Virus record (IMG/VR): IMGVR_UViG_3300023110_000023
Span: 14,302 to 78,301 of that record
Origin: a virus
Strand: one strand, 5' to 3'
Length of the DNA stretch: 64,000 nt
A program made the translations under genes and the position numbers. Below are positions 4,277-48,110 of the stretch, one piece after another (position 1 is the stretch's first letter; every line of letters starts with the position of its first letter). Below the pieces are notes generated by a model. That model made no database searches, was not told the DNA's origin, and worked only from the letters and a program-made list of their open reading frames with translations.

Positions 4277-6567
4277 GCGTGGCGATGGATAGCGTGGCTA
4301 AAATCACGGCCATCGTTGAAGCGCGTACGGCTGGCTTCAAGAAGGGAATGGCGGAGGTCGGAAGTGGGCTCACGGTTGCTGGTGGTCGTTTCAGCCGATT
4401 CGGTGAAACGGCTCGCAAGTCCTTCGTGGCGGTTCAAATCGGTGCTGTGCTTGCAGGTCAAGCCCTCGTTGCTGGCTTCGCAGTCAAGGCTTCAAAGGCG
4501 TTCATTGAGTTTGAGGATTCACTCCTTCGGACTTCGGCTATCATGGGCGGGAAGTCCATCTCGGACATTCAACGAGTGGCTGACGAAGTGATGCACTTGG
4601 GTGCTACAACCCGTTCCACAGCCGTTCAAGTGGGCGAGGCGGCGCAGATTTTGGCGTTGGCTGGTTTGAAGGAAGAGGACTTGGTGGACAACAAGGCACT
4701 TGAGCAATTGAACAACCTCGCAATCGCCGCTGGCGTTGATATGCCGACCGCCGCTGGCGTTGCGATTTCAGCCCTTAAAGGTATGGGAATGGAAACCAGC
4801 GAATTGGGTCGCGTGAACGATGTGATGATGCAAACAATGAGCAATTCGTTCACTACGGTTGAGTCGCTTGGGCAGACCATGAAGTTCCTTGCACCAACGG
4901 CTCGCGCGGCGGGCATTTCATTGGAAGAAGCATCCGCCGCGGCGGGTGCATTGGGCAACGCAGGGCTTCAAGGAACGATGGCTGGAACAGGTATGCGTAT
5001 GGCTATCAACAAACTCATCAAGCCGACTACGGAGGCTCGGAGGGTCATTGAAGACTTGAACCTCAATGTCTTCCGATTGACTCCAGCGGGTGAATCGGCT
5101 CGCAACAGTCTGCGAGGGGTTGAGGCTGGGTTGGAAGAAACTCGGCTTCAAGCGGAGGGCGTGAACCTTGAAATCAAGGCACTCAACAGCGAACTCAACG
5201 ACCTGTCCATTGACCAGCAGAAGAACAACCTTGAGATAGCCAAAATCCGCCAGCGAGCATCCAAGCAGGGTCGTGAATTGACCAAGCGTGAGATTGAACA
5301 GATTGAGCGTTTGGAGATGGCGAATGATGACTTGAACATCACCATGCAAGAACGCAGTTTGGAACTGTCCATCCAGCGAAGAGAGCAGACGCAGTTATCG
5401 GAGTCAATAAGCAGTCAAGAATCGGAGATGAACTCGCTCAACCAAACCATCACCGACCAAACTCAAGGACTGACATCGCTGACCGATTTGTTCCAGCAAT
5501 TGCGCGATGCTGGTGCGACAACATCGCAGATTCTCCAAGTCTTCGGTGTGCGTGGTGGAAACGCAATCAACGCCATTTTGGGACAGGCCGATGCCTTTGA
5601 GGAATTGGTCGCCAAGAACGAGGATGCAAACGGCAGAACTGCGGAGTTCGTTCAAACCATGACAGGCTCAACGCAGAACGCCCTGTTTGAATTGCAGTCA
5701 GCCTTCACAGCGTTGATGATAACAGTCGGTGAACAGTTCGCCCCGATGATAAAGGACACACTCGTTCCAGCACTCATCTTGGCGACTGAAAAATTGGGCG
5801 ATGAAGGCTTCGTGGAGGCGATGGGAGAAATCGCTGACAAATTGGTTGAGGTCTTGCCCCAATTGATTGATTCCTTCGTGCCTGTGCTGATTCAAATGGC
5901 GGAACAGTCGGATGACTTGATTTATGTCTTCGTGGCTCTCGCTCACGCTCTCCGATTCCTCATGGTTTTCATTGAGCCCATCTATGAATTGCTGGGCGGT
6001 ATCGGGATGATATTTGAGGGAATCGCGACCCTAAATCCACAGATGATTTTTGAGGGGCTTGGAAAGGCGGCGGGTGGTCTTGCACTCATATTGATGCCGA
6101 TATACAGGCTGGTTGAAGCGATTGCTGATTTCTTGGGCATTATTGACGAGGAAGGAACGGGCGCGCAACGGGCTGGGTCGGGTGCTTTGAAGGGGGCGGC
6201 GGCTGGTGCGTTGGTCGGTTCTGCTGTCCCCGTTGTCGGAACGGCGGCGGGTGCTGTCGTGGGTGGAATCATCGGTGCTGGGCTCACGATGTTCGCAGAA
6301 GGTGGAATCGTGAACGAAGCCACGCTGGGTGTCTTCGGTGAGGCTGGTTCGGAGGCTGTGATTCCGCTGGACAGACTCCCTGCATTGATGAGCGAATCAA
6401 TGGGAGGGCAAGCCTCAAAGCCCGAAACCACAGTCGTTTTCAGCGGGGACATCATCATTGGCGAAGGCAACAACCTTTCAAAGCGCGATGTTGAGCAGAT
6501 AATGGTGGAAACGATGCCGAAGGTGTTCAACCGATTCGGAATGCAAGGTGCAAGGGGTGTGATTTGA
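4273..6567 (+). CDS. tail tape measure protein (TP901-like core)
   Basis: HLGATTRSTAVQVGEAAQILALAG, ESLGQTMKFLAP, GLQGTMAGTGMR; coiled-coil; hydrophobic segments; C-term AEGGIV...GEAGSEAVIPL. Confidence 0.93.
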   Translation: MSVAMDSVAKITAIVEARTAGFKKGMAEVGSGLTVAGGRFSRFGETARKSFVAVQIGAVLAGQALVAGFAVKASKAFIEFEDSLLRTSAIMGGKSISDIQRVADEVMHLGATTRSTAVQVGEAAQILALAGLKEEDLVDNKALEQLNNLAIAAGVDMPTAAGVAISALKGMGMETSELGRVNDVMMQTMSNSFTTVESLGQTMKFLAPTARAAGISLEEASAAAGALGNAGLQGTMAGTGMRMAINKLIKPTTEARRVIEDLNLNVFRLTPAGESARNSLRGVEAGLEETRLQAEGVNLEIKALNSELNDLSIDQQKNNLEIAKIRQRASKQGRELTKREIEQIERLEMANDDLNITMQERSLELSIQRREQTQLSESISSQESEMNSLNQTITDQTQGLTSLTDLFQQLRDAGATTSQILQVFGVRGGNAINAILGQADAFEELVAKNEDANGRTAEFVQTMTGSTQNALFELQSAFTALMITVGEQFAPMIKDTLVPALILATEKLGDEGFVEAMGEIADKLVEVLPQLIDSFVPVLIQMAEQSDDLIYVFVALAHALRFLMVFIEPIYELLGGIGMIFEGIATLNPQMIFEGLGKAAGGLALILMPIYRLVEAIADFLGIIDEEGTGAQRAGSGALKGAAAGALVGSAVPVVGTAAGAVVGGIIGAGLTMFAEGGIVNEATLGVFGEAGSEAVIPLDRLPALMSESMGGQASKPETTVVFSGDIIIGEGNNLSKRDVEQIMVETMPKVFNRFGMQGARGVI

Positions 6568-9500
6568 TGGCTTCAACCAAACAAAGCATCACACAGACCT
6601 TCTCACGCATGAAGAACGGCCTTGCTGAACTCCAGCGGTGGTTTCCAGCCTTCATCAAGAACGATGGCGTTGGAGGGCTCTCCATTGACCCTGTGCTGTA
6701 TCGCACAAACTTCTCCGCCAAGACCCCAGCCCAAACGGGTGGCTACGATGACGAAGCCAGCCAAGCAGGGATTCGGGTGGAGGCAATCAACGATGACGGC
6801 ACAGATGTCAGCAACAACCCAACCATCGTCATATCGGGAAGCGGAACACTCAACGCCAAATGCACCATCAACCATGATGATGGAAGTGGCTCAACCGTCA
6901 TTCGCTTGATTGCACCATCGGGCGACTTGACAGGAAGTGGAACAAAAACACGCTCGCATGAGGGAATCGGGGATGCGACTTCCGACACGACCACGACCGC
7001 GCCCTTCCCCGTGTTCATGACGATTCAAGAACTGACCGAGATGCTTGACACCTATCGGCACATCGGAGATGGTGATGAAAACAAAAAGGCATGGCTTCCA
7101 CATGGGTTGGAAGGCGGAGGGCAACACGGCCACTCATCAGCATCGGCTTTGCCTTCGCTCGCTGGAGGCGACCCTCGCGAACCCACATCGGTTGCGTTCC
7201 CCACAGCCTCTCCGTATCGCGCAACCGTGTTCATGCCGATGATGCTGGACAACAACCAATTTGACAAACGAATCACGGGTGCGAGCAACGAGGTTGCTGA
7301 CTATACCTACCTCCTTGCGAACTTCGGTGGGGGCTACGATGTTCTTGACATTGACCGATACGACCCCGACCCCGAAGGCGAAGACTCGGCCACGATTCGC
7401 TACAAAACGGTGGGGTATTCGGGCGACCATTTGCTTGGGAAGAACACAGCACAGCAAGCATACAAAACCGCGCCCAGCGGAACGGCACACAACACAATGA
7501 CACACAACAACCCCGACTTATCGTTTGATGGAAGTGCAAGCCACTTCCCCAAATACCGAACCCGCTGTGCTTTGGCGATGTTCCTCAAAGACGGGACATA
7601 CACGCTCAAGGGCGGGACTCTCATTCCATACATCTATGACACGAATCGCGAGATTGGGGGCAACCAAACCAGCACAGTCCACGCGATTTGGGATGGGCTT
7701 GATGGAGAAGGCGACTTTGACATGACCGCTTCGGGCATTGAAAAACAATGCTCGGCTCAAATCACTCCGATGTTTGACTTCCTCCAGCCACCCATCACAA
7801 CCTCCGCACAGGGAGGCAATTTTGACTACGAGGTGGTCAATGGGTCAGCCAAGTTCAATTGGGCAAACTACATCACAGATGTGCAGTCAATCCAAGCCAG
7901 CGATTCCAACCTGTTCACAGATGGTGATGGAACGGACTTAGACCACATCACTACGGCACGACCGTTCTTGGTTCGCAACAACCCAGCAAGCGTTCCTGTG
8001 CGATACATTCGGAGGAACAATCTCATCCTGTCCATTTGGCTTGACTACACGAATGTCAGCGGTATCAGCGGTTCAACGATTCCTCAATTCACAGTCGGAA
8101 GTCCGATTGAACTGTGGGGACTCACGGGCGCGTTGGGCAGGGACACCTCTCAAGGTCGGAACATTGGGCATAAGTTCGGCCTCTATGAGTTCGCACCACG
8201 AAGCGAAGAAACGAATCCCGACACATATTCTTTGGGCGGGTTGAATCACAACGGATGGTGGATAATCAACGCGTACGATGACGATGGCGGTGGTCTTGAC
8301 GGAGAGTTTGTCGTGGATGACATTCTCGGCAACGGGGACTCAACCGAGTTCTATGGGGCTCGGATTGATATTCAAATCTATTCAAACGAAGCCCTTCCGA
8401 GTCAAGGGAATGTCAGCGCGTACGCGCCGACCAGCGGGTATGTTTGTCAAGGACTGATTGGAGGCGCGGAAAGCACTTCTTCTCACTATGGAACTGTTGC
8501 TTGGGCAACCAGCCAAAGCAATTCCCACCCCCAATTGCGACTCTTCGGTAGTGCGAGCGAGAAACTGTATGGAACGGGTGTTGGGTATATGGGCGGGGCA
8601 AACACCCCAGCGAACAATTTGCAGTCCCATGTTGGACATCGCTATTTTTACCCATCACGCATGGTTGATTCTTATGTTGATGAGGGAGAATGGGGTGCGA
8701 CAGGAAACACGGGGAATCTCAAGTTTTTCTTTGCCGATGACGCGACCGCGTTCCGTTCAATTGAATTGCAGAAGGCGACCGACTTGCTCTATTCCAATGG
8801 TGTTCCTGTTGTTCAAAGGGGAGATGGTTTGCTTCGGCTTCCAGCACCACAGGGCAAGGACATTGGTGCAAGGCGACTCTATTCCCTCACACAGACTCAC
8901 ATCACAGGCACATTCGTGAGTGAAGAAACTGACTTTCGCGGGCTCGGTTCGGACTTGGTTGAAAGCCTCCCAGCAACATGGTTGTCAAGAGGGCTTCACA
9001 TTCCCCTGTGGTCATACATTGACACGGCGAATGGCCGTCATGCTTGGGACTACATCAAGCCCATTGGTGCATCGGGAACATGGCTCTATGGGCGAAACCG
9101 ACCATTCCCAGCCCATGAACGAACAGGAACGCGATTGGGCTACAACGGAGGCGTTGCTCTTGACACGACCAAATACGGCTTGAGCGAGATGGGATGCTCG
9201 CAGATGTGGCTGGATTGGGAGATGAAGGCCAAAATCCCATTCCGAACAAATCAAATGGTGCGAATCACCTTTGACACCAACGAGGAACACTATGTCTTTG
9301 GTCGCCACGCTTTGATGTTTGATGACTTTCAAGGAACGATGAGGGGTGGTGCTGGCTTTTTGCCCCTGTATGATGGGAAGACATCAGCATCACCACTCAC
9401 ATTGAGTGCGTCATCATCGCCCGAAATCTATATTCGGGCTGGTGAAGGGTATTCAAATGGCTTCATAACGCACCCGTATGTGAACGGTGCGTTCACAGCA

Positions 9501-11303: not shown

Positions 11304-11473
11304 TTGGCTGACTTGGCTCATCCTCTTGGAACTGATTTGGTGGGCATTCATTGGATTCGTGGGGCGGGAACTGTTGTCCCTGTGGCGAATGATTCGTGAA
11401 ATCCCGATTGAATACAATTGATTCCAAAACGGGCTTCGGCTCATCGCGATTTGGCGATTTTAGGGGTGAAAAC

Positions 11474-11504
11474 CATTGATATTGTGAAAACATTGATATA
11501 CCCC
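11474..11504 (+). promoter_or_regulatory. class I double-box promoter
   Basis: CATTGATATTGTGAAAACATTGATATACCCC; ATG 11522 at +29. Confidence 0.75.
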
Positions 11505-11521
11505 ACCCCTAATGCCTAACC

Positions 11522-11899
11522 ATGAGCCCAACCATGAGCCCCCACGCACTCCAGCGCGTTGATGAGCGACTTGTCGGTGCAGAAGCCGAGAAGGTCGCCA
11601 ACGCTGTCAAGTCTGCCTGTGCAAAGCATGGAAGCCGAAGCATCGGAATCATCGCTCACCGATTGAACGGTCAGCGTGGTCAAGCATGGGGCGAGAAGTC
11701 CAATGGCGACTGCGTTGTTGTCATCGTGCGAAACAACCAAGTCAAGACCACATACCTCCGCCGAGCCACTCAAACCTTTGACCTCTCCGTGTCCCGCACC
11801 GATGTGCTGGTGGACATGACGGGAACTGTCCTCAAGTCCGTCATGACCAAGAACGGTGGCGGTCGTGGTGCTGACTTCAACCCATTCAACATGAACTGA
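11522..11899 (+). CDS. hypothetical protein (class I cassette)
   Basis: MSPHALQRVDERL...VVIVRNNQVKTT; weak resemblance to RelE-like/DUF4258 RNase folds. Confidence 0.7.
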   Translation: MSPTMSPHALQRVDERLVGAEAEKVANAVKSACAKHGSRSIGIIAHRLNGQRGQAWGEKSNGDCVVVIVRNNQVKTTYLRRATQTFDLSVSRTDVLVDMTGTVLKSVMTKNGGGRGADFNPFNMN

Positions 11900-11912
11900 A
11901 CAGGTGATACAG

Positions 11913-12035
11913 ATGAAAGCAGAAGGAAGACCCAACAAGCGACACAGCCGAGATAAGCGAGGCTTCACAGGAAAATACAACAAAGGCGGGAAGCGAATGT
12001 CGGGGGCTCGCCCTCTTCACCAATGCCGTCTGTGA
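11913..12035 (+). CDS. 40-aa basic microprotein (not in ORF track)
   Basis: SD AGGTGA; MKAEGRPNKRHSRDKRGFTGKYNKGGKRMSGARPLHQCRL; fills the gap between adjacent ORFs. Confidence 0.5.
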   Translation: MKAEGRPNKRHSRDKRGFTGKYNKGGKRMSGARPLHQCRL

Positions 12036-12050
12036 ATGGAGATGATGAAC

Positions 12051-12278
12051 ATGACGAATCTAAGCGAGATGGACATACCCGAAAACTACGAGTTTCGTGG
12101 CTACGAATACGACCTGTGGAAAGCATACACCGAAGAAGGCATGGCTCGCATTGAAGCCAGCGGTGTCCGTGATGGCTATGCCGAGCGAATGTATGGCGTG
12201 AACCGAGCCTGTGTCAAGCGATGGGTCATTGACGGGGTTGAGGTTTGGTGCGTGTATGCTCGCTATTCCTCATGGTGA
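12051..12278 (+). CDS. hypothetical protein
   Basis: SD GGAG 9 nt before ATG 12051 (track start 12036). Confidence 0.6.
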   Translation: MTNLSEMDIPENYEFRGYEYDLWKAYTEEGMARIEASGVRDGYAERMYGVNRACVKRWVIDGVEVWCVYARYSSW

Positions 12279-19674: not shown

Positions 19675-21486
19675 TCAATTGGACAGCCCAGCGGCGACTC
19701 GTAGTGTAGCAAGTGGGTCGGGTGCTTGTCGCCCGACTGACAGGCTCATCTCCGTTCCGTTGGTGTCCATTGTCCACTTGACATCAAAGACCCTGTGGCG
19801 ACCCGACAGGCCAGCATCACGGGATGCGAACTCCATCACATCACCAACCGAGATGTCCAGCCTTTCGGGGATTCCCTCAACGACCCAGCGAGCAAGCGAC
19901 GCGCCCTGCGAAGCCAGCATGGTTTCACCGACCAATATGGCTTGATGCTCGTCTGCGATGAAATCCTCACGAACCACACGCTCAACGGGCTTGGTTGGGT
20001 ATCGTGCCGAGCCGATTGCTGGAACGGACACGGAGATGCCTTTGCTGTCGTTCTTGACCTTGACCACATTGAAGCGGTGGGTATCACCCTCTTCACGCTG
20101 AATCATCGTTGGATAGAAGTCCTGTGGGACAGCGGTGCGTGGAATCCTTCCAGCGACCAGCGGGACAACCGTTGCATCATCCACCTCACGCAGTCGTTCC
20201 ATGACGAGATACCCGTGAGAATCGGCCTTCAACACGACCAAGTTCGGTGTTGAATTGATGATGGACAGGATGGACTGAATCGCGTTCAATCGCGTCTTCC
20301 CCACGAAGTCCATGTCGGCTGGAAGAATCACAAACGACTCGTTGAGGATGCGACCGATTGGCGGTGTGTATGCCGAATTGCTGATGATGTCTTTGATGAC
20401 GGTTGCCGAGTCCGACTCATAATACCCAACAGGAGAGTCCAACACTTCCCGTGTGAGATAGCCGAGCGAATCCAAAGCGATGAGTTCCAAACTCGTATTG
20501 GACTCAATAACCTCCGAAACGAATCCTGTGAACACCAGCGGTGGATTTGCCCAATGTCGTGGCGAAGCATACACTTGGACAACATCACCTTCTCGGATTG
20601 TCCCCGACCTTCGCCCTGCTGTGTTGTTGATGTCAATGTTCATTCGTGCTGGGGCGTTCATGGATTGGGTGAACGACACGGACTTCACGCCCTGCAAGTT
20701 CGTCATGCCGTTGATGACGACCACAGGGGCGCGTGGAGTCGCTTCATCCCTCGCCAGCCGACCATACAGGTTGCGATTCATGACCCTCCGAGAGCGAGCG
20801 AAGAATACCTTGTGAGCCCATCCGTTGCGAAGACCCGTGAGGCTCATTCGCTTTGGTCGGTTTGTCCATTGAAGCCCTTCGGGATTCCAGCCTCCATCGG
20901 AGAAGCCAAGACGACCGAGATTGAATGTTGGCTGGGGCAGAATGGAAGTCGGGTACGCGCCCTCCGTTGCACCTGTGGTCATGGCGAATCCACCACGACC
21001 TCCACCTCCACGCCTGTTCACGATGTCGTATTTGTCGGGGAAGCCCGATTCGGACAGGTAGTGATACCCGAAGCCCAGCGTTTCTGCCGACAGGTCGCCA
21101 TGCAAGTGTGGGTCAAACGGTCGTGGTGTGGTCAAAGAAGTGTAGCAAGCGGTGGATAGGCGGTCAAGTTCCCAACCATCGTCAAGGTCGGTCGGGTGCG
21201 GGATGAAATCAATGCCCCAATCGGTCGGATAATGCGATGGCCGTTCCATGACTTCCTTCTCGTAGTGGAACGCATCCAGCGTTGGTGCTGGCTCGTTGCG
21301 TATGGCTTCGTGAGTGTTCTCCAGCCATGTCTTTGACACCCACCGAGCGATTGCCGTTCTCGGTCGTCTTGGGTCGCTTCCAAGCCGTTCAATCTCATCC
21401 AGCAGGGGTTGGGAAGGGTTGATGACGATTTGAGCGTCAGCAGGGGCTCTCACAAGCCTGTGGAAGCGTTCCGTTTGGCTGTCCAT
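19675..21486 (-). CDS. baseplate hub / tail-tip (late control D-like) protein, inverted
   Basis: GDVVQVYAS...VFTGFVSEV...LELIALDSLGYL...DISVGDVMEF...SLSVG pattern of hub proteins; class III box CAATTAAACC 30 bp upstream on minus strand places start at MDSQTER. Confidence 0.75.
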   Translation of the reverse strand: MDSQTERFHRLVRAPADAQIVINPSQPLLDEIERLGSDPRRPRTAIARWVSKTWLENTHEAIRNEPAPTLDAFHYEKEVMERPSHYPTDWGIDFIPHPTDLDDGWELDRLSTACYTSLTTPRPFDPHLHGDLSAETLGFGYHYLSESGFPDKYDIVNRRGGGGRGGFAMTTGATEGAYPTSILPQPTFNLGRLGFSDGGWNPEGLQWTNRPKRMSLTGLRNGWAHKVFFARSRRVMNRNLYGRLARDEATPRAPVVVINGMTNLQGVKSVSFTQSMNAPARMNIDINNTAGRRSGTIREGDVVQVYASPRHWANPPLVFTGFVSEVIESNTSLELIALDSLGYLTREVLDSPVGYYESDSATVIKDIISNSAYTPPIGRILNESFVILPADMDFVGKTRLNAIQSILSIINSTPNLVVLKADSHGYLVMERLREVDDATVVPLVAGRIPRTAVPQDFYPTMIQREEGDTHRFNVVKVKNDSKGISVSVPAIGSARYPTKPVERVVREDFIADEHQAILVGETMLASQGASLARWVVEGIPERLDISVGDVMEFASRDAGLSGRHRVFDVKWTMDTNGTEMSLSVGRQAPDPLATLRVAAGLSN

Positions 21487-30818: not shown

Positions 30819-32006
30819 ATGAAAGCCCCGTATCTCTCGGCAACACGGCTCAAAATGGCGAAGGACTGCTCGTTCGCGTACGAGCAACACTACGACCCCA
30901 AGAGCGACACTCCGCGCACCTTGAAGAAACTCGCTAACTCACCGTCAAAAACACAGGCGGCGAGAATGGGGAATGTGGTTCACGGTGCGTTGGAGGATTG
31001 GCGTATGCCCGATGAAAACGGCAAAGTCCCAGCACCGAAGTTCGGTCGGCTGATGAAACTCTATGACGAGTGGGCATCCAAGCCACAGTTCGCATTGGAA
31101 TACGAGATGTATGAAGACGGCAAGAACCTCTTGAAGCGATGGTTTGACAGGCGAGGCAAAATGCCGATTCGTGTTGTCGCCACCGAGCAACAAATGGGTC
31201 GCCACGATGCACCGTATGTCCTTGACAACGGTGTGCCGATTTTCGGTTTCATTGACCTCATCGTTGAACACAAAGACGGCACGATTGAATTGGTGGACTA
31301 CAAATCCAATCGCGCCCCGAAGACGCAAGACGAGGCTGACAACGATGTGCAAGCAGGGATTTATCTGTCGTGGGCGAAGGAGAACTTCCCCGACAAACCC
31401 CTGCTGTTCTCGTTTGAGATGCTTCGGTTTGGCGTGGTTTCAACCGTGTGGACTGACAAAAAAATTGAGAACTTCAAGGGCTGGCTCAAGACCCAATTCA
31501 ACATGATTGAATCGCTCACAGAAGGCATCCCATCCATCGGTGATTCGTGTCGCTGGTGTGCATACACCTCCATCTGCCCATCGGCTCAAGACTTGATTCA
31601 CAAAGGTGCATTTGACTTGGTGGAACATGAGTTCGGCTCGGATGACGAAGCGTTGGATGCTCTCGCCAAAGTCAAGGCTGGGCAGGGAATCCTCAATCGC
31701 GTACGCAAGTCCATTGAAGACGACTTCAAGGGGCGACTTGACCCACTCAACATCTCCGAAACGATTCAAACGCAAGGCTGGGAAGTGTCCTTCAACCAGC
31801 GTGAGCGAACCGAGTTCATTCCATCGGAAGTGCAACGGCTCGTTCCTCCAGCGGTGTTTGGACAAATGGTGTCGCTCACCAAGACAGCGGTGGACAAAGT
31901 GTTGCCGATTCTGCCCGAAGACACGGCTCAAGCCATCAAGGATTCGGCAATCAAGAAGCCATACAACGCATTCACGGTGAAGAAGGCTGACAAGTTCAAA
32001 GAGTGA
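30819..32006 (+). CDS. PD-(D/E)XK exonuclease (Cas4/RecB-like, Fe-S)
   Basis: LSATRL...C, GNVVHGALE, GFIDL...ELVDYKS, QAGIY, CRWCAYTSIC; TTGATAAACC at 30789. Confidence 0.9.
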   Translation: MKAPYLSATRLKMAKDCSFAYEQHYDPKSDTPRTLKKLANSPSKTQAARMGNVVHGALEDWRMPDENGKVPAPKFGRLMKLYDEWASKPQFALEYEMYEDGKNLLKRWFDRRGKMPIRVVATEQQMGRHDAPYVLDNGVPIFGFIDLIVEHKDGTIELVDYKSNRAPKTQDEADNDVQAGIYLSWAKENFPDKPLLFSFEMLRFGVVSTVWTDKKIENFKGWLKTQFNMIESLTEGIPSIGDSCRWCAYTSICPSAQDLIHKGAFDLVEHEFGSDDEALDALAKVKAGQGILNRVRKSIEDDFKGRLDPLNISETIQTQGWEVSFNQRERTEFIPSEVQRLVPPAVFGQMVSLTKTAVDKVLPILPEDTAQAIKDSAIKKPYNAFTVKKADKFKE

Positions 32007-36708: not shown

Positions 36709-38007
36709 ATGGCGAGAATCCTTTGGGGCTCGGAACAACCCACACGACCGACAGGCTACGGTGTTGTCAGCCGTGAAATCATCAGCAGACTCATCAAGAC
36801 ACACGGGCATGAAGTGTTCGTGATGGGCTGGGACTACAACGGAGAACCATTCCCCCACCCCGATGGCTGGACACTCGTTCACGCTGGGCTCAACCGATTC
36901 GGTGGCGACCCGCTGAATCCCGCTGACCCGAACTCCCCAACGGTCTTGGATATGCACTTGGCCGAACTCAAGCCCGACCTGTATCTGTCTTTGATTGATT
37001 GCTGGTTCATCGGTCATGCTGTCCTTTCAACGAACAGGGCGCGCATTCCATACATCGCCTATACCCCGATTGACGGCTTCCCAATCGCGTACGCTTGGGC
37101 GAAAATCTTGGGGAATGTCCACACTCCACTCTTCATGGCTGACTACGGCAAGCAGGTCTTCCAAGACTTCGTGGCCGAATACAACAGCGAGAACGGCACA
37201 GCACCGAAGGAGATGCTCTTAGACGACCTTGACCGCTACAACAACGCAGAACTGCCGAGAATCCATCATGGCGTGGATGAGAAGGTCTTCCGACCACGAA
37301 GCCTTGCCGAGAAGGAATCAGCACGACAGGCATTGGGAATCACTTGGGACACCGTGTTCCTGTCCGTTGGTCGCAACGGGAACAGGAAGCAAATCCCTCG
37401 TCTGCTGGATGCCTTCAAACTCTTCATTGAACGCAATCCCAAAGCCAACGCTGGACTCATCATCCATTGTGGCGACCCGACTGACAACATGAGTCTTGGT
37501 GGCTGGAACTTGCCCGAATTGGTCAAGCAGAAGGGCTTGGAGAGCCATGTTCGCTTCTCCGACATGAGTGCTAATCCGCTTCATGGATTGAGCCGTGAAG
37601 ACCTCTCCACGCTCTATGGCCTGTCCGATGTCCATGTCCTCGCAACAGGAGGCGAAGGATTCGGGATTCCATCGGTGGAAGCCATGTCCTGTGGCGTTCC
37701 AATCATCCTCCCCGATAACTCAACCGCGCCCGAACTGATTGGCGAGGATGACGAGAGGGGCTGGCTCGTTCCACTTGCGACCACCATCACGGGTGCGAAG
37801 TGGGGCGTGAACATGGGCTTGGTTGATGTTGAAGCACTCGCTGATGCGATTGCAGATGCTCACCATGATGTCAAAGGTCGCAAGGCCAAAGGCAAGAAGG
37901 CTCGCCAATTTATTGAGGCGAATATGACATGGGACATCATCGCCCAGCAATTCCACGACCTCATTGAAGCAACGATTGACCGACAAAAACCGCTGGGGAT
38001 GGAATGA
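36709..38007 (+). CDS. GT4-family (GT-B) glycosyltransferase
   Basis: PTGYG, IHHGVD, VGRNGNRKQ, GEGFGIPSVEAMSCGVP; true start MARILW 30 bp after class II box TTCATAAAGGTGGG at 36679. Confidence 0.92.
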   Translation: MARILWGSEQPTRPTGYGVVSREIISRLIKTHGHEVFVMGWDYNGEPFPHPDGWTLVHAGLNRFGGDPLNPADPNSPTVLDMHLAELKPDLYLSLIDCWFIGHAVLSTNRARIPYIAYTPIDGFPIAYAWAKILGNVHTPLFMADYGKQVFQDFVAEYNSENGTAPKEMLLDDLDRYNNAELPRIHHGVDEKVFRPRSLAEKESARQALGITWDTVFLSVGRNGNRKQIPRLLDAFKLFIERNPKANAGLIIHCGDPTDNMSLGGWNLPELVKQKGLESHVRFSDMSANPLHGLSREDLSTLYGLSDVHVLATGGEGFGIPSVEAMSCGVPIILPDNSTAPELIGEDDERGWLVPLATTITGAKWGVNMGLVDVEALADAIADAHHDVKGRKAKGKKARQFIEANMTWDIIAQQFHDLIEATIDRQKPLGME

Positions 38008-39915: not shown

Positions 39916-40282
39916 GGACAACGACCGCATCGCTGGCGACAACGATGAAATCCTCGCCCTCATCCGTGAACGGCTGGACATCGGGCTCAAGACATACGGG
40001 CATGGAATCAATGTCCATGACGACACACGGGAATGGGGAACGAAGGAGAACTCATGGGTTGAGATGGGGCTGGAAGAGATGCTTGACCTCGCCCTGTATC
40101 TCGGTGCATCGTGCATACGCATCCGACACATTGAGGCGGAATGCGAGGCGATTCGTGAGGAACTCAAAGCCAAGCGGAAGGAACTCAACGAGCGTGAAGT
40201 CAAGGTGTCGGTCAAGGAGAAGCGTCTTGCTGATAAGGGTGGGGACAATTGGTGGAAACGATGGCGTGGAAACCGTTCTTAA
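39905..40282 (+). CDS. MazG-like all-alpha nucleotide pyrophosphatase-family protein (putative)
   Basis: RLDIGLKTYG...W...GLEEMLDLALYL (EExxD) motif; immediately upstream of PolB. Confidence 0.55.
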   Translation: MVAKDNDRIAGDNDEILALIRERLDIGLKTYGHGINVHDDTREWGTKENSWVEMGLEEMLDLALYLGASCIRIRHIEAECEAIREELKAKRKELNEREVKVSVKEKRLADKGGDNWWKRWRGNRS

Positions 40283-42954
40283 TTGTCGCTGTGGAATATC
40301 ACGAAGACCGCGATTTGACGGTTAGGCTACGGGTGAAGTCGCTGGATGGCGACTCGTTGGTGCTGAATGTTGGAGGCTGTGTGCCTCGCTTTTGGACTGA
40401 AAAAGACCCCAGCAAACTGCGTCTGCCGAAGGGAATCAAGTTCAAGGCATCCGACTACACCTCCATTGAGGGCGCGCCCCTGTGGGAAGTGCGAGCCAAA
40501 CTTCCATCGGAACTCCGTGAGATTCGTGAGGTTCTGTTCCCATCGTATTGCGCCGATGTTCCCTTCGCCAATTTGGTTCGCTGGATTTACGATTGGACTG
40601 CGGTTATTGAAGTCAATACCGATGTTCTGCACCAGCCACAGATTCGCCCGATTCACATTCGCCCCAGCGATGAAGACCCAGCGAACTTCAAACTCAATCC
40701 GCTTTATTTTGACATTGAAACCGCTGATTCGCTGGACACCGAGAACACGCCCGAACGCGTGGTGTCCATCGCCATCTATGACCAACGCACAGATACCCAC
40801 GAATGTGCGACAATTCGCCATACGAGCGAGCGACAGGTCAAGCGGTTCTTATCCAGCCAAGAGGCGTTGCACAGCGTTGTTGAGCATGAGAACGACATTC
40901 CACCGCTGAACTCCGACCGCATCAAAGTCTTCAACATTGAAGGCGATGACGATGACGAGCGAGAGGCTGGATTGCTGTGGTGGTTTCATCACAGGCTTGA
41001 ACACTACGACCCCGACCTCATCGCTGGGCAGAACATCATTGACTACGACATACCGTATCTCCGAAACCGTTGCCGAATCCAACGCAACAACATGGAACGG
41101 CTTCACATGGGCAGTCCACCCGTGTGGGCGACCTATCCGAAACTGTTCCGAAAGAGGCGTGGATTGATGCCTCCGTTTGACACGAAAAAGGTGTATGCCG
41201 AGCAAGTTCAAGGCTCGGCGGCGACTACGGGGCAAGCGAGTCTTGGATGGATGGGGGCGACCACGCTGGGCTACGGCAAAGTTCCACGCACCTCAATCAA
41301 GGAGATGATGGACAGCGACCCGCTGATGCTGGTCATTTACAACATTTGGGACAATGTGGTGGCTCATCGTTGCATGGACACGCTGGACTTGGTGGCGTTT
41401 TATCAAGCGAAGGTGGCGTTTCACAATTCCACGATTCACCACGCTCACAGCAACATGATGCTCATTGAGGACATGATGGGACACCTGCTCAAAGAACGCA
41501 AGGTCGTGATGCCCTCGCTGGACACCGTGAGGGCGCGATTGACGGGCGAAGGGATTGAGCAAGGTGGATTCGTGATGGAAGCACCATCGGGCATTTGGAG
41601 GAACGCTATTGAATTGGATAACTCAATGGAATACCCCAGCGTCATCATCTCATGCAACGCAGACCTGTCCACGAAGGTTCGTGAGGAAGACTATCCCGAT
41701 GGCTTCCCATTCCCTGTGGCTCGCACTCCAGCGGGTCGCATTTACCGACAGGACATTGAGGGACTGATGCCCGCGTTCCTTCGCAGACTCGCCAGCGAGC
41801 GTGAGATTCTGCGAGCCAACATGAGCGAAGCCGAAGACAAAGGCGACCACGCTCTTGCTGACAAACTCAACAAAAAGCAACGGGTCATGAAGGAGAACAT
41901 GAACTCTTGGTATGGTGTGCTGGGTTCGGGCAGAACCGAGAAGACAGCCCAACGACCGTTCCGCATGACCGACCCCGAAATCGGCTCGGACATCACCGAG
42001 ATTGCGAGGCTACACAACGATTGGAACAAACAGATGATTGAGAAGACAACCATGTGGTTTCACGATGACGGAGTGTTCCCCGAACCATTGATACCCCATA
42101 ACATTGATAAACCGTCAGCCCCCCGTGTATCGGAGTCCGAGTCGGGCGGGTGGCTGGAACTCCGCTTCCGTGTGCTGTATCAAGACACCGATTCGTGTAA
42201 AATGTGCATAGAGAATCATGACGAGGCTGAACAGGCCATCCGACCATTCACCGAACAGGACATCTATTCCATCGGCAATATGCTGACGGTGATGCTCAAC
42301 GATTCGTTCCATGAGTTCGTGCAGACGACCATCGGCATCCCACGAAACGAGTTCTTCAAGGTCAAGCCCGATGCCTATTATTCTCGCTATTTTCAATGGG
42401 GAGTCAAGAAGCGATACGCGTACATGGACTTCAACGGGAAGAAGGGCTATCGTGGCGTGGAGATGCGAAGAAGTTCCTCCCCTCAAATCGTAAAAGACGC
42501 ACAGCAAGCCATTTTTGACAGCATCCTCAACGGGTGTTCCAAGACCGAATTGAACTCAATTATCCGCGATATTGAAGCCAATATGCTGGATGAAACCAAG
42601 ACTCCAGCGTTGAACTTCGGTCAGCCAATGGGAATCAAGAAAGAAGGAACGATGGCTCACAAATCAGCGATGTGGACAAACACCAATCTCGGAACTCAAT
42701 TCGCTTTGGGCGATAAGCCGATGTTGTTCATCGCATCCAACACACCCGCTGGAACGCCCTCAAACCGTGTCGTTGCTGTGGAGTGGGGAGATGACCCAGC
42801 AAGTCTTGGCGTAGTCGTGGACAGGAAGGCAAGCATCACGAAGTTCTTCAACGATTCAAACTCGTTCTCGCAGATATTGGGGGCGATGGGGACATCGTGG
42901 GAACAGGCGATTCTCGGCATCGGCAAGACCTCAATGGGTGATTGGTTCAAATGA
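40261..42954 (+). CDS. polB: family B DNA polymerase
   Basis: Exo motifs FDIET and GQNIIDYDIPYL; pol motifs LDNSMEYPSVI, KENMNSWYG, YQDTDS, KKRY; class II box at 40230. Confidence 0.96.
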   Translation: MAWKPFLIVAVEYHEDRDLTVRLRVKSLDGDSLVLNVGGCVPRFWTEKDPSKLRLPKGIKFKASDYTSIEGAPLWEVRAKLPSELREIREVLFPSYCADVPFANLVRWIYDWTAVIEVNTDVLHQPQIRPIHIRPSDEDPANFKLNPLYFDIETADSLDTENTPERVVSIAIYDQRTDTHECATIRHTSERQVKRFLSSQEALHSVVEHENDIPPLNSDRIKVFNIEGDDDDEREAGLLWWFHHRLEHYDPDLIAGQNIIDYDIPYLRNRCRIQRNNMERLHMGSPPVWATYPKLFRKRRGLMPPFDTKKVYAEQVQGSAATTGQASLGWMGATTLGYGKVPRTSIKEMMDSDPLMLVIYNIWDNVVAHRCMDTLDLVAFYQAKVAFHNSTIHHAHSNMMLIEDMMGHLLKERKVVMPSLDTVRARLTGEGIEQGGFVMEAPSGIWRNAIELDNSMEYPSVIISCNADLSTKVREEDYPDGFPFPVARTPAGRIYRQDIEGLMPAFLRRLASEREILRANMSEAEDKGDHALADKLNKKQRVMKENMNSWYGVLGSGRTEKTAQRPFRMTDPEIGSDITEIARLHNDWNKQMIEKTTMWFHDDGVFPEPLIPHNIDKPSAPRVSESESGGWLELRFRVLYQDTDSCKMCIENHDEAEQAIRPFTEQDIYSIGNMLTVMLNDSFHEFVQTTIGIPRNEFFKVKPDAYYSRYFQWGVKKRYAYMDFNGKKGYRGVEMRRSSSPQIVKDAQQAIFDSILNGCSKTELNSIIRDIEANMLDETKTPALNFGQPMGIKKEGTMAHKSAMWTNTNLGTQFALGDKPMLFIASNTPAGTPSNRVVAVEWGDDPASLGVVVDRKASITKFFNDSNSFSQILGAMGTSWEQAILGIGKTSMGDWFK

Positions 42955-43412
42955 CGCGCCCCAGCGACTACACGAAGGCGTGGAGGATTCTCCGCACGAA
43001 CTGTGGCTTGAGCCACTATCAAGTGCGAGCGATATTCAGCGAGCATCTCGGAGGGCTCGGTGTCCATAAGAACCTCGCTGGTCGTGAACTTCGCAGGGAA
43101 GAAGCCCTGTGGGAACAGGAAGCCGAAGCATTCGCTTTGATGCTGAATGACCCCGACCCCACCAAGTTCGCTGACAGGCTGTATCAAGCCGTGTGGGAAG
43201 GTGATGAACCCCAATTGGCGTATGTGCTGGTTCGGCTGGTGGAGAAGCGTGTCCGAGAATGGAATGGCTGGGGCGAGGAAGAACGCCAGCGAATCAAGGA
43301 ACGGGTGCTTCGGAGGCTGTCGCGATACGAGAAGCGAACAGGGCTTCAAGCGTGGACTGACCGCCACTTGCTGACCTATCTCCACATCAACGATGTCCAC
43401 TTTGAATCATGA
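42951..43412 (+). CDS. hypothetical protein
   Basis: ATGA overlap with polB stop; SD GGTGA. Confidence 0.7.
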   Translation: MTRPSDYTKAWRILRTNCGLSHYQVRAIFSEHLGGLGVHKNLAGRELRREEALWEQEAEAFALMLNDPDPTKFADRLYQAVWEGDEPQLAYVLVRLVEKRVREWNGWGEEERQRIKERVLRRLSRYEKRTGLQAWTDRHLLTYLHINDVHFES

Positions 43413-43423
43413 CCACTCAAATA

Positions 43424-43465
43424 TCAATGGTTGAGATTTGTAAGTGGAAAGGTATATATGCAACC
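43424..43465 (+). promoter_or_regulatory. promoter shared only with vWA gene (TCAATGGTT-N8-TAAGTGGAA-TATA)
   Basis: Matches 45848-45891; canonical archaeal BRE/TATA (GAAAGGTATATA). Confidence 0.7.
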
Positions 43466-43531
43466 GCTGTATCACAATGGTTTGTCGGACTACGAGCCGA
43501 CACCCAAACCGAAACACAGGAGATGAAAAAT

Positions 43532-44701
43532 ATGGGAATGATTGAGAATATGCGAGATGCCGTTGAAATCAACGGTGGCCGATTGAGCGAAGAACGATAC
43601 CTTGAGGAAGTGCTACGACTGACCGAGAGCGAAGGGGGTTCAACCACCATCGCTTCCTTGAAGTCCAATGCTTTCAACAGCAAGCGAATGGAATCAGCGG
43701 GAATCACCCGTGTGTCCATCGGTGCTGACAAAATGGTGTGGACTGTGAGCCTTGCAGAAGACATGATGAACGGCAACACCAGCACCCTTCAAACGAACTT
43801 CGTTCAGCGCGACACCAGCCAAGACTTCAACACGGATGAAGGATGCTTCTATGGCGTTCCACGACGCTCGCCATCGGACTATCCCGACTTCCTCCAGCAA
43901 TACATCATCCCACGCGGAACTCTCCAATACGAAGAGTCCGACCGCAACGAGATGCGTCTGTTTGCTGTTGCATTCAAGAACGGCTGGAATGTCGCCATTG
44001 ACGGTGCAAAGGGCTGTGGGAAGACGATGGGCATTCGTGCCTTCGCTTCCGAAGTCGGTATGCCTGTCCTTCGTGTGAACTGTTCCGAAGGCTTCACCGA
44101 AGAGTCCTTCATCGGCTACAACACGCTCAAGAACGGTGAGATGACTTGGATTGACGGGATGCTTCCAATCGCCATGCGATACGGTTGCCTTCTCATCTTT
44201 GACGAGTTCCGTTCCGCACGACCCGAAATCATGACCGCATGGAACGCTGTCGGTGATTCGGGACAATTGCTCTTGACGGACAACAACAACGAAGTCGTGT
44301 CGGCTCACGCTGACTTCCGCACCTTCGCCACCATGAACCCGCTTGATGGGTATTCGGGTGGACAGGACATCAACCAAGCAACCCTTGACCGCTTTGACCT
44401 CAACATGAAGGTGGACTACCTTCCCGAAGAGAAGGAAATCAAGGTCATCTGTCAGCAGTCGGGCGTGAACAACATCGCCCTCGCTCGCCAATTGGTGTCC
44501 TTCTCCAACGACCTCCGCCGAATGAAGAAGGAAGGCACTCTTGAGTCCGACACCAGCACTCGTATGCTGGTTGCGATGATGGAAGCCAGCCTTGACTTCA
44601 ACATGACCGAGATGGTTGAGTTCGTGATGCTTGGTCGCTATCAGCCCCATGAGATTGATGAAATCAAGGCTGTGGCTCGCGCTCGCTTGAGCGATTATTG
44701 A
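43532..44701 (+). CDS. MoxR-family AAA+ ATPase (CbbQ/NorQ/CobS-like)
   Basis: DGAKGCGKT, RVNCS, WIDGML, LIFDEF, ATMNP, NQATLDRF, STRML. Confidence 0.93.
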   Translation: MGMIENMRDAVEINGGRLSEERYLEEVLRLTESEGGSTTIASLKSNAFNSKRMESAGITRVSIGADKMVWTVSLAEDMMNGNTSTLQTNFVQRDTSQDFNTDEGCFYGVPRRSPSDYPDFLQQYIIPRGTLQYEESDRNEMRLFAVAFKNGWNVAIDGAKGCGKTMGIRAFASEVGMPVLRVNCSEGFTEESFIGYNTLKNGEMTWIDGMLPIAMRYGCLLIFDEFRSARPEIMTAWNAVGDSGQLLLTDNNNEVVSAHADFRTFATMNPLDGYSGGQDINQATLDRFDLNMKVDYLPEEKEIKVICQQSGVNNIALARQLVSFSNDLRRMKKEGTLESDTSTRMLVAMMEASLDFNMTEMVEFVMLGRYQPHEIDEIKAVARARLSDY

Positions 44702-44711
44702 GGCTCACACA

Positions 44712-44772
44712 CGCTGGGAGATTGGGTCGGGCTGGGGGGTTCTCCCAGCGGGGTGTTTCTGCCCCCCAGCCC
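44712..44772 (+). other. predicted H-type RNA pseudoknot 3' of AAA gene
   Basis: S1 44712-44721 / 44741-44750 (10 bp perfect) interleaved with S2 44729-44739 / 44762-44772 (11 bp perfect). Confidence 0.55.
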
Positions 44773-44823
44773 ACACCCTGTCCATCCCTGTGCTTGATAA
44801 CGGTGGGGGCTGAACTCCAGCCC

Positions 44824-44985
44824 ATGTCCTCCGTTGAAGACCTCATCAGCAAGCAAGCCGACCAAATCCGTGAACTCCAATCCAAAGTGGAACGCCTTGA
44901 GCGAATCATTGACGGATTCGGTGAGATGTTGCGACCTTCTCCGAAGGAAAACAACGCACGACTGACCCGATGGATGAACGACTGA
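44824..44985 (+). CDS. small coiled-coil protein
   Basis: MSSVEDLISKQADQIRELQSKVERLE; class II box at 44794. Confidence 0.65.
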   Translation: MSSVEDLISKQADQIRELQSKVERLERIIDGFGEMLRPSPKENNARLTRWMND

Positions 44986-45839
44986 TGTTGATTGGTGCGA
45001 AGAGGAACTTCTCGCCCATCAAAGCATGGTTTGAGGCATTCCAACACGGCAAGCCATCGCAATACCCACTCATCGTGGTGGGCGATGCTGGCGTGGGGAA
45101 GACGACCGTTGTGAAGCACTACGCGACCGCGAACGGATTTGATGTCATCTCCAGCGAGGGCGGTGAATCGCGTACGGCTTCGGACTTGAAGCGTCTGTTC
45201 AGCGATGCGAGGATGCCGACTTTCTTTGGACAACGCAGGGCTGTCATCCTTGAGGATGCCGACCTGCTGGGGAAGAAGGAATGGAAGGAGGTTGCCGAGC
45301 CGATTGGAAGCAAGGCATTCCCGTTGGTCATTATCGCGCCCAGCGTGTCGTCTGTGGCGTGGAATTATCGCAGGGGTGCATTGGTGCATCACCTTCCGAA
45401 TCCTTCGCACAGCGACCTCACAGCGTATCTCACGGGGATTGCTGACGATTCCGACCCAGCCCACTTGGATTGGATTGCATCCAACGCATCCACATGGCGA
45501 CAGGCTGAACACCTTCTCCGAACCACGCCCGTTGGATTCCAAGACGAGATTGGAGATTGGAAGCCCAGCCGACACGGACACGATGAAGTCGTGGCGTTGC
45601 TCGCTGGAGATGGTGGCGAATCATTCTCATCCCATCCACTCGCTGTGATTTCATGTGCCGAGTTCAACGGGTGCGACCCCGATGTTGTGTTGAAGGCGAT
45701 GGATTTGCACAGCAAGTCTTGGTCAGCCGACCTATTGAGTCCGATAAGCCGAGCATACATCTCCACGATGCGAACCCAAACGCAGAACCGACCGCCATTC
45801 CGTCAGCGTCAAGCCCAAACCCGATTCCTCAACAAATGA
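44970..45839 (+). CDS. replication factor C large subunit-like AAA+ protein (short, divergent)
   Basis: IVVGDAGVGKT, DVISSEGGESRT (degenerate ELNASD.R), VILEDAD. Confidence 0.7.
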   Translation: MDERLMLIGAKRNFSPIKAWFEAFQHGKPSQYPLIVVGDAGVGKTTVVKHYATANGFDVISSEGGESRTASDLKRLFSDARMPTFFGQRRAVILEDADLLGKKEWKEVAEPIGSKAFPLVIIAPSVSSVAWNYRRGALVHHLPNPSHSDLTAYLTGIADDSDPAHLDWIASNASTWRQAEHLLRTTPVGFQDEIGDWKPSRHGHDEVVALLAGDGGESFSSHPLAVISCAEFNGCDPDVVLKAMDLHSKSWSADLLSPISRAYISTMRTQTQNRPPFRQRQAQTRFLNK

Positions 45840-45847
45840 CTCAACCA

Positions 45848-45891
45848 TCAATGGTTCAGTTCCATAAGTGGAAGTGTTTATATGGTGCAAC
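45848..45891 (+). promoter_or_regulatory. promoter shared only with MoxR AAA gene
   Basis: TCAATGGTT-N8-TAAGTGGAA-GTGTTTATATGGTGCAAC; ATG 45906 at +29 from TTTATA. Confidence 0.7.
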
Positions 45892-45905
45892 GGGCTGGGA
45901 GGGGT

Positions 45906-48110
45906 ATGAGCCGAGCAATATCGCCACGACTACGAGCCCAAGCCCGTGTCCGAACCTTGACCCGTGTAGCCCGTGTGCTATCGGGCGAATTGGAGAAGGT
46001 TGGAACGCCTGTCAAGCAAGTCATCCTGTGTCCACAGGGTCGTGCTTGCACAGACGGACAACGAGTGTGGATTCCCGAAACCATGAGCGAAGACCCACGA
46101 CAGAACTTGATGATGCAAGAAGCCATCCTCGCACATGAGGCGGCGGGTCATCTCCGCTACACCGACTTCGGTGCATGGAAGCGTGTTGGCGACAAAATCA
46201 AGGCTGGCGAGGAAGACCGCTTGCTTCACGACTTCGTGAACATTCTTGAGGATGCCCGTGTGAACCACTTGCTCGCACAGGACTTCGCTGGAAGCGGGAA
46301 GCGTCTTGACGCAACCCAAGAGATTTTCATGGTCAAGCACCGTGAGATGTGGGCAACCAAAACCATTGACGAGTCCAACGCTGGTCGTGCTTCCATCGTA
46401 GCCATGATGACCGAAGCCATCAGCCGTGAAGCACACTTCTTCCCTCACTCCCCATTGGTCTGCGACTACATGGATGAGGTTCGCACTCACATGGTCAATG
46501 CTATCAGCCAACCAACGACCGATTCGGTCATCAAGTCAGCCAAGAAGGTCTTGGCCGTGTTCCGTGAACACTTCCCAGCAACCGCTGGTGATGACGACAT
46601 GACGGGCATCCCACAGGGCGAAGACGGTGAAGGCATGATGATGGATGACATGAGCCCCGAAGAGATTGAACGCATGGCTCAAGAGCAGAAGAAGCGAGAG
46701 GCGAAGGTGGAAGAAGCACCTCGCCAACGATTCAAGGAACTCAAGGAACAGGCCGAGAAAATGGCTCAAGAGTCCAAGAAGGCACAGGAAGACGCACAGA
46801 ACGCACAGGAGAGCGAAGAAAACGCTGGGGAGGGTCAAGACACCACCGAAGGCGAGGAAGACGCTGGAGAGGGCGAGAACGGCCAAAACAGCGATGCTGG
46901 CGATGACGCTGGTGCTGGCGATTCCTTCGTTGAAGACGAGGATGGCGACATTGAAGGCGAGATTGAGGGCGAGGGAAGCGATGGTGAAGGCATGGACATC
47001 AACATGGACATGGACACCGATGGCGACTCCGATTCCGATTGCGACAACGGCTCTCCTTCCGATGCTGACGCTGACGCTGACGCTCAAGAGGGCGATGCTC
47101 AAGACGGCACTCCACAGAACTCCGATGAAGGTGGCGAGCATGAAGGCGAAACCCCATACGATGACGACTTGGGTGTTGAACTCCAAGACCTCCTTGAAGC
47201 CGAAGAACTTGAAGCACTCAAGTCCGAAGCACAGGAGGCTGGCGAATTGGATGCAGTCAGTTCCGCAGACATTGAAGGCTCATACGATGAGAATGACCGA
47301 TACAGCCTCGTCAAAGTCATCGGTGCTTCCGAGTTCATGGCTGAATATGAAGAACGCAACATCGCTACATACAACATTCACTACGATGTGGTCAAGGGAC
47401 AGAACCGAGCCCAAATCACCACCATGAGCAACCAAATGAAGAGGCTCTTGAAAGACCCACAGGGCAAGTGGGAACGAGCAACCAAGAAGGGTCGCATTGA
47501 CTCTCGCAGACTCTCATACAGCCAAACCAGCAACCGTGTCTTCCGCAAGCGAAACGAAGAGTCCGATGCACAGGTGAACGCACTCATCCTCATTGACGCA
47601 AGCGGTTCAATGAGTGGACACCGCGCACAGATGGCTTCGGAGGCTGGCGTGGTCTTGACCGAAGTGATGGATTCAATCGGCTGGAATGTTGAAGTCGTGG
47701 ACTTCCACTCTTCCTTCTCCGACACCACCATCCGTGTTCGCAAGCCAATGATGTCCCCCATCAACCAATTCAGCAAGTCGGCAATCGCTATGCCGTTCAC
47801 GGGTTCATCCAACGGTGATGGCTACGCTGTTGAGTGGTGCTTGAACCGCTTGATGCAATTCAACGGCAAGAAGGTGCTGTTCGTCATCTCCGATGGACAA
47901 CCAAGTGGGGCTCACCCAGCCGACATGAACGAGGAAGAACACTTGCTCAAGGTCGTTGCAGAAGCACCAAAGGAAGTCGGTCTGTTCTCCATCGGCATTG
48001 ACGGCATGGACACCAGCAAGTTCTATCCTCACTCCGCATCCTGTGATGCAAGCGACTTGGCGAAGGCTGTGTTGCCTGTGTTCAAGCAAATGGTTCGCGC
48101 CATGCGATGA
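45906..48110 (+). CDS. vWA domain protein (CobT/NorD-like MoxR partner)
   Basis: HEAAGH and NILEDARVN metallopeptidase-like N-term; long acidic linker; LIDASGSM MIDAS, VISDGQP. Confidence 0.92.
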   Translation: MSRAISPRLRAQARVRTLTRVARVLSGELEKVGTPVKQVILCPQGRACTDGQRVWIPETMSEDPRQNLMMQEAILAHEAAGHLRYTDFGAWKRVGDKIKAGEEDRLLHDFVNILEDARVNHLLAQDFAGSGKRLDATQEIFMVKHREMWATKTIDESNAGRASIVAMMTEAISREAHFFPHSPLVCDYMDEVRTHMVNAISQPTTDSVIKSAKKVLAVFREHFPATAGDDDMTGIPQGEDGEGMMMDDMSPEEIERMAQEQKKREAKVEEAPRQRFKELKEQAEKMAQESKKAQEDAQNAQESEENAGEGQDTTEGEEDAGEGENGQNSDAGDDAGAGDSFVEDEDGDIEGEIEGEGSDGEGMDINMDMDTDGDSDSDCDNGSPSDADADADAQEGDAQDGTPQNSDEGGEHEGETPYDDDLGVELQDLLEAEELEALKSEAQEAGELDAVSSADIEGSYDENDRYSLVKVIGASEFMAEYEERNIATYNIHYDVVKGQNRAQITTMSNQMKRLLKDPQGKWERATKKGRIDSRRLSYSQTSNRVFRKRNEESDAQVNALILIDASGSMSGHRAQMASEAGVVLTEVMDSIGWNVEVVDFHSSFSDTTIRVRKPMMSPINQFSKSAIAMPFTGSSNGDGYAVEWCLNRLMQFNGKKVLFVISDGQPSGAHPADMNEEEHLLKVVAEAPKEVGLFSIGIDGMDTSKFYPHSASCDASDLAKAVLPVFKQMVRAMR

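Follow-up and report, generated by a model that had tools for sequence, protein, structure and literature searches.

Ala-Ala codon pairs in a word-depleted tailed-virus genome are retained almost only in a GCGGCG/CGCCGC context

Background

Methylation at one site is able to block a restriction enzyme whose own site overlaps it, as in the case of Dam, Dcm and CpG methylation versus commercial enzymes. The Bacillus phages SPR, phi3T and H2 encode multispecific cytosine-5 methyltransferases, some of which protect GCNGC, and this degenerate word is also split by enzymes specific either for GCWGC (TseI/ApeKI type) or for GCSGC (TauI type). Restriction-site avoidance has been described in phages and archaeal viruses (PMC6286503), and tailed viruses of archaea purge motifs or methylate their own DNA (PMC8651126). 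A GCDGC methyltransferase that acts differently on GCWGC and on GCSGC has also been reported (PMC8936443). The subject of this work is the word GCNGC, necessarily spelled by every Ala-Ala codon pair, in the linear 78,301-bp virus record IMGVR_UViG_3300023110_000023 of IMG/VR (completeness estimated at 97%). The window comprises bases 14302-78301 of this record (64,000 nucleotides), and positions refer to the window unless the genome is named.

In this work we have analyzed which GCNGC sites are left in the genome and how they are spelled, confirming that the remaining Ala-Ala codon pairs share, with a single exception, one hexamer context, GCGGCG/CGCCGC.

Results

The word GCWGC, which an earlier reading of the window from its letters alone (the sequence-only reading) had judged to be absent, does not occur either in the window or in the whole genome, where about 186 copies are expected. 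GCNGC as a class is far under expectation on both strands: 16 sites are left in the genome, all of them GCSGC, 14 within the window (Table 1) and two upstream of it (genome 4636 and 10791). For GCSGC the expectation is 215 from base composition or 87 from a Markov model, and the former corresponds to a 13-fold depletion. Every one of the 16 sites is an in-frame Ala-Ala codon pair, and the other frames and the non-coding DNA of the genome contain none, i.e. every GCNGC that could be removed synonymously has already been removed. The Ala-Ala dipeptide itself is found 16 times versus 158 expected (10-fold depletion). The sequence-only reading had counted about 13 rare Ala-Ala, mostly in the tape-measure gene; the rarity and the location hold (10 of the 16 lie there), and the count has to be raised to 14 in the window, the site at 6199 having been missed.

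The flanks of these sites are not random, since 15 of the 16 share one hexamer, GCGGCG/CGCCGC, spelled on the coding strand as GCG GCG in 11 cases and as C GCC GCN in four. GCGGCG is present 15 times in the genome versus about 57 expected from base composition. The only site outside the hexamer is that at 6199 (GCGGCT), the tail of GCGGCGGCT, and the earlier statement that each Ala-Ala is written GCG GCG or C GCC GC, overlapping CGSCG, has to be corrected at this one point. Position 6204 reads G in variant-strain contigs from runs X15, X16 and X21, in which the 6199 site becomes GCGGCG; the strains in these runs are 90-99% identical, and the comparison with them covers 40 of 151 differences. 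Variants from other metagenomes at 6195 and 6204 turn ggG GCG GCG GCT into ggC GCG GCG GCG, the former change adding CGCG on the 5' side and the latter completing the hexamer on the 3' side.

Table 1 Coordinates of the genes and sites considered in this work (window numbering)
Feature	Coordinates	Strand	GCNGC position	Evidence and remarks
DNA methyltransferase gene, PF01555 beta-class N6_N4 family; the only recognisable one; candidate CGCG modifier	54705..56363	+		552 aa; SPPY at aa 103, FGGSG at aa 493
FkbM-family SAM methyltransferase gene	61570..62184	+		PF05050, E 2.3e-10; TIGR01444; phrog_8156
Tape-measure gene	4273..6567	+		PF10145 PhageMin_Tail, E 5e-30; holds 10 of the 16 Ala-Ala/GCSGC sites
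GCG GCG CAG, GCGGCG hexamer; tail forms GCGC without CGCG cover (CGGCGCA)	4639..4646	+	4639	Ala-Ala kept in G001 and L023
CGCCGC (atC GCC GCt), Ala-Ala	4725..4730	+	4726	Site listing, relative alignment
CGCCGC (acC GCC GCt), Ala-Ala	4749..4754	+	4750	Site listing, relative alignment
GCGGCG, Ala-Ala; CGC precedes (CGCG overlap)	4906..4911	+	4906	Site listing
CGCCGCGGCG, Ala-Ala-Ala; two overlapping GCSGC, both in hexamer context, CGCG in the middle	4935..4944	+	4936, 4939	Site listing
GCGGCG, Ala-Ala	6067..6072	+	6067	Site listing
GCGGCGGCT, Ala-Ala-Ala; second site GCGGCT	6196..6204	+	6196, 6199	Site listing; 6204 T>G in X15, X16, X21
CGGCGGCG, GCGGCG Ala-Ala, a further CGGCG before it	6242..6249	+	6244	Site listing
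GCGGCG on the plus strand; coding strand gtC GCC GCt, Ala-Ala	19691..19696	-	19691	Site listing
GCGGCG, Ala-Ala in PD-(D/E)XK nuclease gene	30957..30962	+	30957	Kept in G001 and G003
GCGCCG: GCGC without CGCG cover, inside TGCGCCG (reverse complement of CGGCGCA)	40550..40555	+		Site listing
CGGCGGCG, GCGGCG Ala-Ala in family-B DNA polymerase gene	41216..41223	+	41218	Ala-Ala kept in G001, G002 and G003
GCGGCG, Ala-Ala in CobT-like VWA protein gene	46140..46145	+	46140	Site listing, relative alignment

The proteome was aligned to that of G001, a sister virus at 55% identity in which GCSGC is not avoided. At the Ala-Ala positions of G001 the virus studied here has Ser-Ala 13 times, Ala-Ser 13 times and Ala-Gly five times, and has kept Ala-Ala 10 times. 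Its own Ala-Ala are also Ala-Ala at 10 of the 15 alignable positions in G001 and at 7 of 16 in G003; in the related locus L023 this is so at 5 of 10, two of those lying in an alignment gap. These comparisons show that GCNGC has been purged wherever a silent or conservative change was possible and that the 16 Ala-Ala left are mostly Ala-Ala in relatives too. The spelling is lineage-specific rather than inherited, since at the conserved prohead protease site IA[KR]AAVKE the relatives (29 compared) use eight spellings, GCGGCG being found once. Among 80 loci recovered from viruses with terminases 68-78% identical, no virus displays the same pattern.

How much of the hexamer context is a side effect of other constraints depends on the null model. 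A plain Markov null, in which 1.1 hexamers are expected, was discarded as misleading because it ignores hundreds of other banned words, and was replaced by constrained nulls in which the other absent words are forbidden, obtained either by enumeration of the allowed codons or by synonymous-swap Markov chain Monte Carlo (MCMC). With allowed Ala codon pairs and fixed neighbouring codons 9.0 of the 16 sites are expected in the hexamer (P for at least 15, 1.7e-4), with free neighbouring codons 7.0 of 16 (6e-6) and with context-specific Ala codon usage 8.8 of 16 (5.6e-5), while the MCMC obeying all other bans gives 6.3 +/- 1.9 of 16. The hexamer accounts for 36% of the 1195 GCSGC sites counted in relatives with a comparable G+C content, and on that share 15 of 16 has P of about 2e-6.

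The hexamer preference is real, yet roughly half of it arises merely from the other bans. It is real because GCG, which makes up only 11% of lone Ala codons of this genome before a Gly codon and only 2% before CA, is the second codon in 12 of the 16 Ala-Ala pairs. It would be barely credible that the hexamer has no special property and is simply the remainder after other bans and codon preferences. The constrained nulls do place 6-9 of the 16 sites in it, and at four sites other spellings are lacking or nearly so; against this stand the 15 sites observed (P 2e-4 to 6e-6), the normal disfavour of GCG before G and CA, the many ways in which relatives spell the same conserved site, and the avoidance of CGSCG elsewhere, owing to which the null should fall lower still. 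Since the flank dependence of the hexamer is strand-symmetric, it acts on DNA and is not an effect of codon usage.

A comparable dependence on flanks is seen around CGCG, and a CGCG shield in this genome is well-supported. In the whole genome 103 of 106 GCGC sites overlap CGCG, and GTAC remains exclusively as GTACGCG/CGCGTAC (35 of 35), which implies that the modified base must be the first C of CGCG. The covered words CGCGC and CGCGTAC are present in all frames and between genes. The three GCGC without CGCG overlap (window 4642 and 40550, genome 5056) all lie in CGGCGCA/TGCGCCG; the first two had been recognized from the sequence alone as lying within CGSCG, and the third behaves likewise. 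A 5' C thus precedes GGCGCA at all three uncovered sites here versus 21% of the GGCGCA sites in relatives (P of about 0.01), and the site at 40550 is not forced by the protein (TGC GCC GAT, in the frame set by the gene start at 40252). CGCG and CGSCG share a register: the first C of CGGCG coincides with the inner C of GCGGC and, on the other strand of CGGCGC, with that of GCGC.

Other depleted words survive mainly beside CGCG, namely CGWCG (8 of 14 as CGWCGCG), CGAACG (6 of 6) and CCGACG (4 of 4), and the four CCNNGG left in the genome are CCGCGG (one) and CCTCGG/CCGAGG (three). CGCG overlap was considered as the actual shield of the GCSGC sites and rejected, as only 5 of 16 overlap CGCG. GGCG or GCG as the shield word was rejected as well, GGCGCC and GGCGCT being absent and GGCGCA present only three times. 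The loss of GCSGC is not explained by avoidance of an AciI-type word (CCGC/GCGG) either, as 441 GCGG are present.

The methyltransferases encoded by the virus are one SPPY beta-class enzyme, whose site is presumably CGCG, and one FkbM-family protein (Table 1). The former has its SPP[YF] motif N-terminal to FxGxG with the recognition domain between them, the order of the beta class, and SPPY is invariant across its 13 homologues. By the accepted motif rules SPPY indicates N4-cytosine methylation. Homologues at 93% and 57% identity exist on other contigs, and one homologue is named from Candidatus Poseidoniales, a hint toward marine archaea as the host. A Pfam scan of the 84 predicted proteins gave no match to PF00145 or PF02086, and the second DNA methyltransferase proposed as one alternative in the sequence-only reading was not found among these 84 open reading frames (orfs), the FkbM-family protein being the sole extra methyltransferase. 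The latter has no relative in the PDB and is a poor candidate for the source of a shield, as its homologue is present in G002, which lacks the pattern.

The sister virus G001 also has a PF01555 enzyme and tolerates CCGG, GGCC, GCGC and GCSGC. It encodes in addition an orf of 750 amino acids (G001:C1:77170-79047, minus strand) in which a long variable region interrupts the match to PF00145, the cytosine-5 methyltransferase profile (positions 1-163 and 269-323), and which may be a multispecific enzyme. That GCSGC is avoided here but not in G001 fits the rule that the methyltransferases carried decide which words are left unerased.

The virus is a tailed one, with recognisable terminase, portal, prohead protease, capsid protein, tail tube and tape measure, as well as a family-B DNA polymerase, a CobT/CobS-like pair and a helicase. 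The tape-measure stretch is present in many salt-marsh metagenomes and in some marine/aquatic ones, and a nucleotide search of the phage database returned no match for this virus. Word loss extends over the whole genome: six palindromic 4-mers are absent (300-400 expected for each), as are 24 5-mers and 51 of the 64 hexamer palindromes, and the proteome contains no Gly-Pro, Pro-Gly or Val-Thr dipeptide. Non-palindromic words are erased as well, AGTA/TACT being found once versus 523 expected and ACTGG, CAGAG, GAGAC, TGGCA and AGTTG not at all, and a few words are 3-fold enriched (GAWTC 433, TTSAA 404, CAATTG 51). A 911-amino-acid protein (51696-54431, plus strand) carries collagen triple-helix repeats (PF01391) in a proteome without any Gly-Pro or Pro-Gly, and a group-1 glycosyltransferase (36709-38007, plus strand) also matches PF20706, 'GT4 in conflict systems'.

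Discussion

The explanation we favour, tentatively and as somewhat short of probable, is that an indispensable Ala-Ala does least harm when spelled GCGGCG, a spelling possibly protected in part by a weak modification at the overlapping CGSCG. The inner cytosine of the hexamer coincides with the first C of this CGSCG and would sometimes be modified, leaving a hemi-modified site that the host enzyme would cut poorly. The likeliest modifier would be the SPPY-type methyltransferase through a weak off-target activity, its main target apparently being the first C of CGCG. The same register would accommodate the three GCGC sites that have no CGCG overlap, in the form CGGCGCA. Any such protection must be partial, because the virus resorts to the hexamer only at protein-forced positions and avoids CGSCG elsewhere. 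A more specific proposal, which we regard as more doubtful, is that the only N4-cytosine-type methyltransferase of the virus accepts a variable spacer in its site, acting strongly at CGCG and weakly at CGSCG; the forced Ala-Ala would then be spelled in the cross-protected hexamer and the codon choice set by the off-target footprint of the enzyme.

The residual targets overlap CGSCG in a fixed register, 15 of the 16 GCSGC and all three uncovered GCGC, and CGSCG and GCSGC, each avoided, coincide far above expectation, when independent targets would do the opposite. The sequence-only reading had proposed CGSCG as a second shielding motif. The flank dependence and the register common with CGCG bear this out, while the avoidance of CGSCG, the frame-bound use of GCGGCG and the lack of a second DNA methyltransferase among the predicted proteins do not.

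Several findings weigh against protection at CGSCG. That CGSCG looks scarce had been noted as a caveat, and correctly so: 31 are seen versus 168 +/- 11 in the constrained null and 215 from base composition, a 5-10 fold depletion. A protected word should not be avoided, and CGSCG therefore behaves as a target. In four sister loci (L141, L143, L160 and L161) CGSCG is not found at all, versus 21, 26, 10 and 16 expected. GCGGCG is confined to the forced Ala-Ala frame and missing from the other frames and from non-coding DNA, unlike the CGCG-covered GCGC and GTAC, which are present in every frame; no GTAC or CCGG in the whole genome survives by means of CGSCG alone. To act on CGSCG as well, a CGCG enzyme would need to accept an extra base within its site, an uncommon ability among enzymes of this kind. 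The other banned words alone put 6-9 of the 16 sites into the hexamer in the constrained nulls. Finally, none of the relatives compared has the same target-recognition domain and could serve as a replicate, the best matches to this domain being 38-43% identical and the 43% one lying on a 2.3-kb contig.

The sister viruses also show what CGSCG may be instead. In the four loci lacking it GCSGC is normal (29, 35, 24 and 41) and never in the hexamer; GCWGC is absent from about 30 sister loci with normal GCSGC, and CGWCG, found 14 times here versus 301 in the constrained null, is absent from other loci. Being erased in different sisters, CGSCG, CGWCG, GCWGC and GCSGC are separate restriction targets in this virus-host system. 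CGSCG itself is thus probably a restriction target, and this implies host enzymes separately specific for CGSCG and for CGWCG. Erased word sets that differ between sister viruses are also seen in L122/L123, L168 and L179-L181.

If host enzymes set these pressures, the flank effect could lie in the enzyme and need no modification: GCSGC would be cut poorly or not at all before G, e.g. by an enzyme with the site GCSGCH or with a strong flank preference. We regard this as unlikely, though it has merits. A single extra base defines the tolerated context, the distinct pressures on GCWGC and GCSGC in the clade (no GCWGC in about 30 loci, GCSGC normal) agree with it, the avoidance of CGSCG poses no problem to it, and a one-base rule is seen alike in G001, where GGWCC is retained only as GGACCC/GGGTCC. 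On the other hand, an untargeted GCGGCG should reach about 57 copies in all three frames and only 15 are seen, where forced; a one-sided flank requirement is odd for a symmetric enzyme; and the three CGGCGCA sites are left unexplained. In G001 all 52 GGWCC, among 67 GGNCC sites, are GGACCC/GGGTCC, and Gly-Pro is found 39 times versus 79 expected. Tolerance limited by flanks is thus a recurrent trait of the clade, for which a general explanation should be sought.

The same host systems might also lend the protection. A CGSCG restriction-modification system of some hosts would methylate the progeny, covering the overlapping GCSGC in the next host with a GCSGC enzyme. The absence of CGSCG from four sister loci and its strong depletion here indicate that a CGSCG-specific host system probably exists, and the coincidence of two avoided words would be explained. 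We nevertheless consider such host-derived cross-protection highly improbable: each GCGGCG gives unmodified virions one more CGSCG target, and a particular mix of host strains is required. We know of no enzyme that specifically spares GCGGCG and of none that targets CGSCG.

Whichever the cause, restriction pressure on this genome reaches silent spellings, the dipeptides permitted in the proteome and the spelling of the unavoidable ones. If the hexamer rule does reflect overlapping modification, as in our tentative explanation, both the main site and the weak secondary ones of an uncultured virus's methyltransferase would be deducible from the sequence alone. The erasure of CGSCG, CGWCG, GCWGC and GCSGC in different sisters points, in turn, to host enzymes of defined specificity.

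Compared with described restriction-site avoidance, the genome shows the same strand-symmetric loss of short palindromes (GCWGC absent, GCSGC 13-fold depleted). Unlike in the usual cases, the loss reaches the protein, Ala-Ala being 10-fold down and Gly-Pro, Pro-Gly and Val-Thr absent, and the sites that could not be avoided are restricted to one hexamer context; a full-text literature search for 'restriction site avoidance' together with 'dipeptide' found nothing. The likeness to the Bacillus phages lies in a viral route to GCNGC tolerance, since the sister virus G001 has the split PF00145 orf and normal GCSGC. The genome studied here differs from them in having no PF00145 gene, its only DNA methyltransferase being the beta-class SPPY enzyme. 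As with the enzymes that split GCNGC, distinct pressures on GCWGC and GCSGC are seen in the clade. As in overlap protection, the first C of CGCG or CGSCG, if modified, would fall, on one strand, inside GTAC, GCGC or GCGGC, with the difference that the putative shield word CGSCG is itself avoided here. Overlap protection is familiar from in vitro work, and in the present case it would be built into a natural genome.

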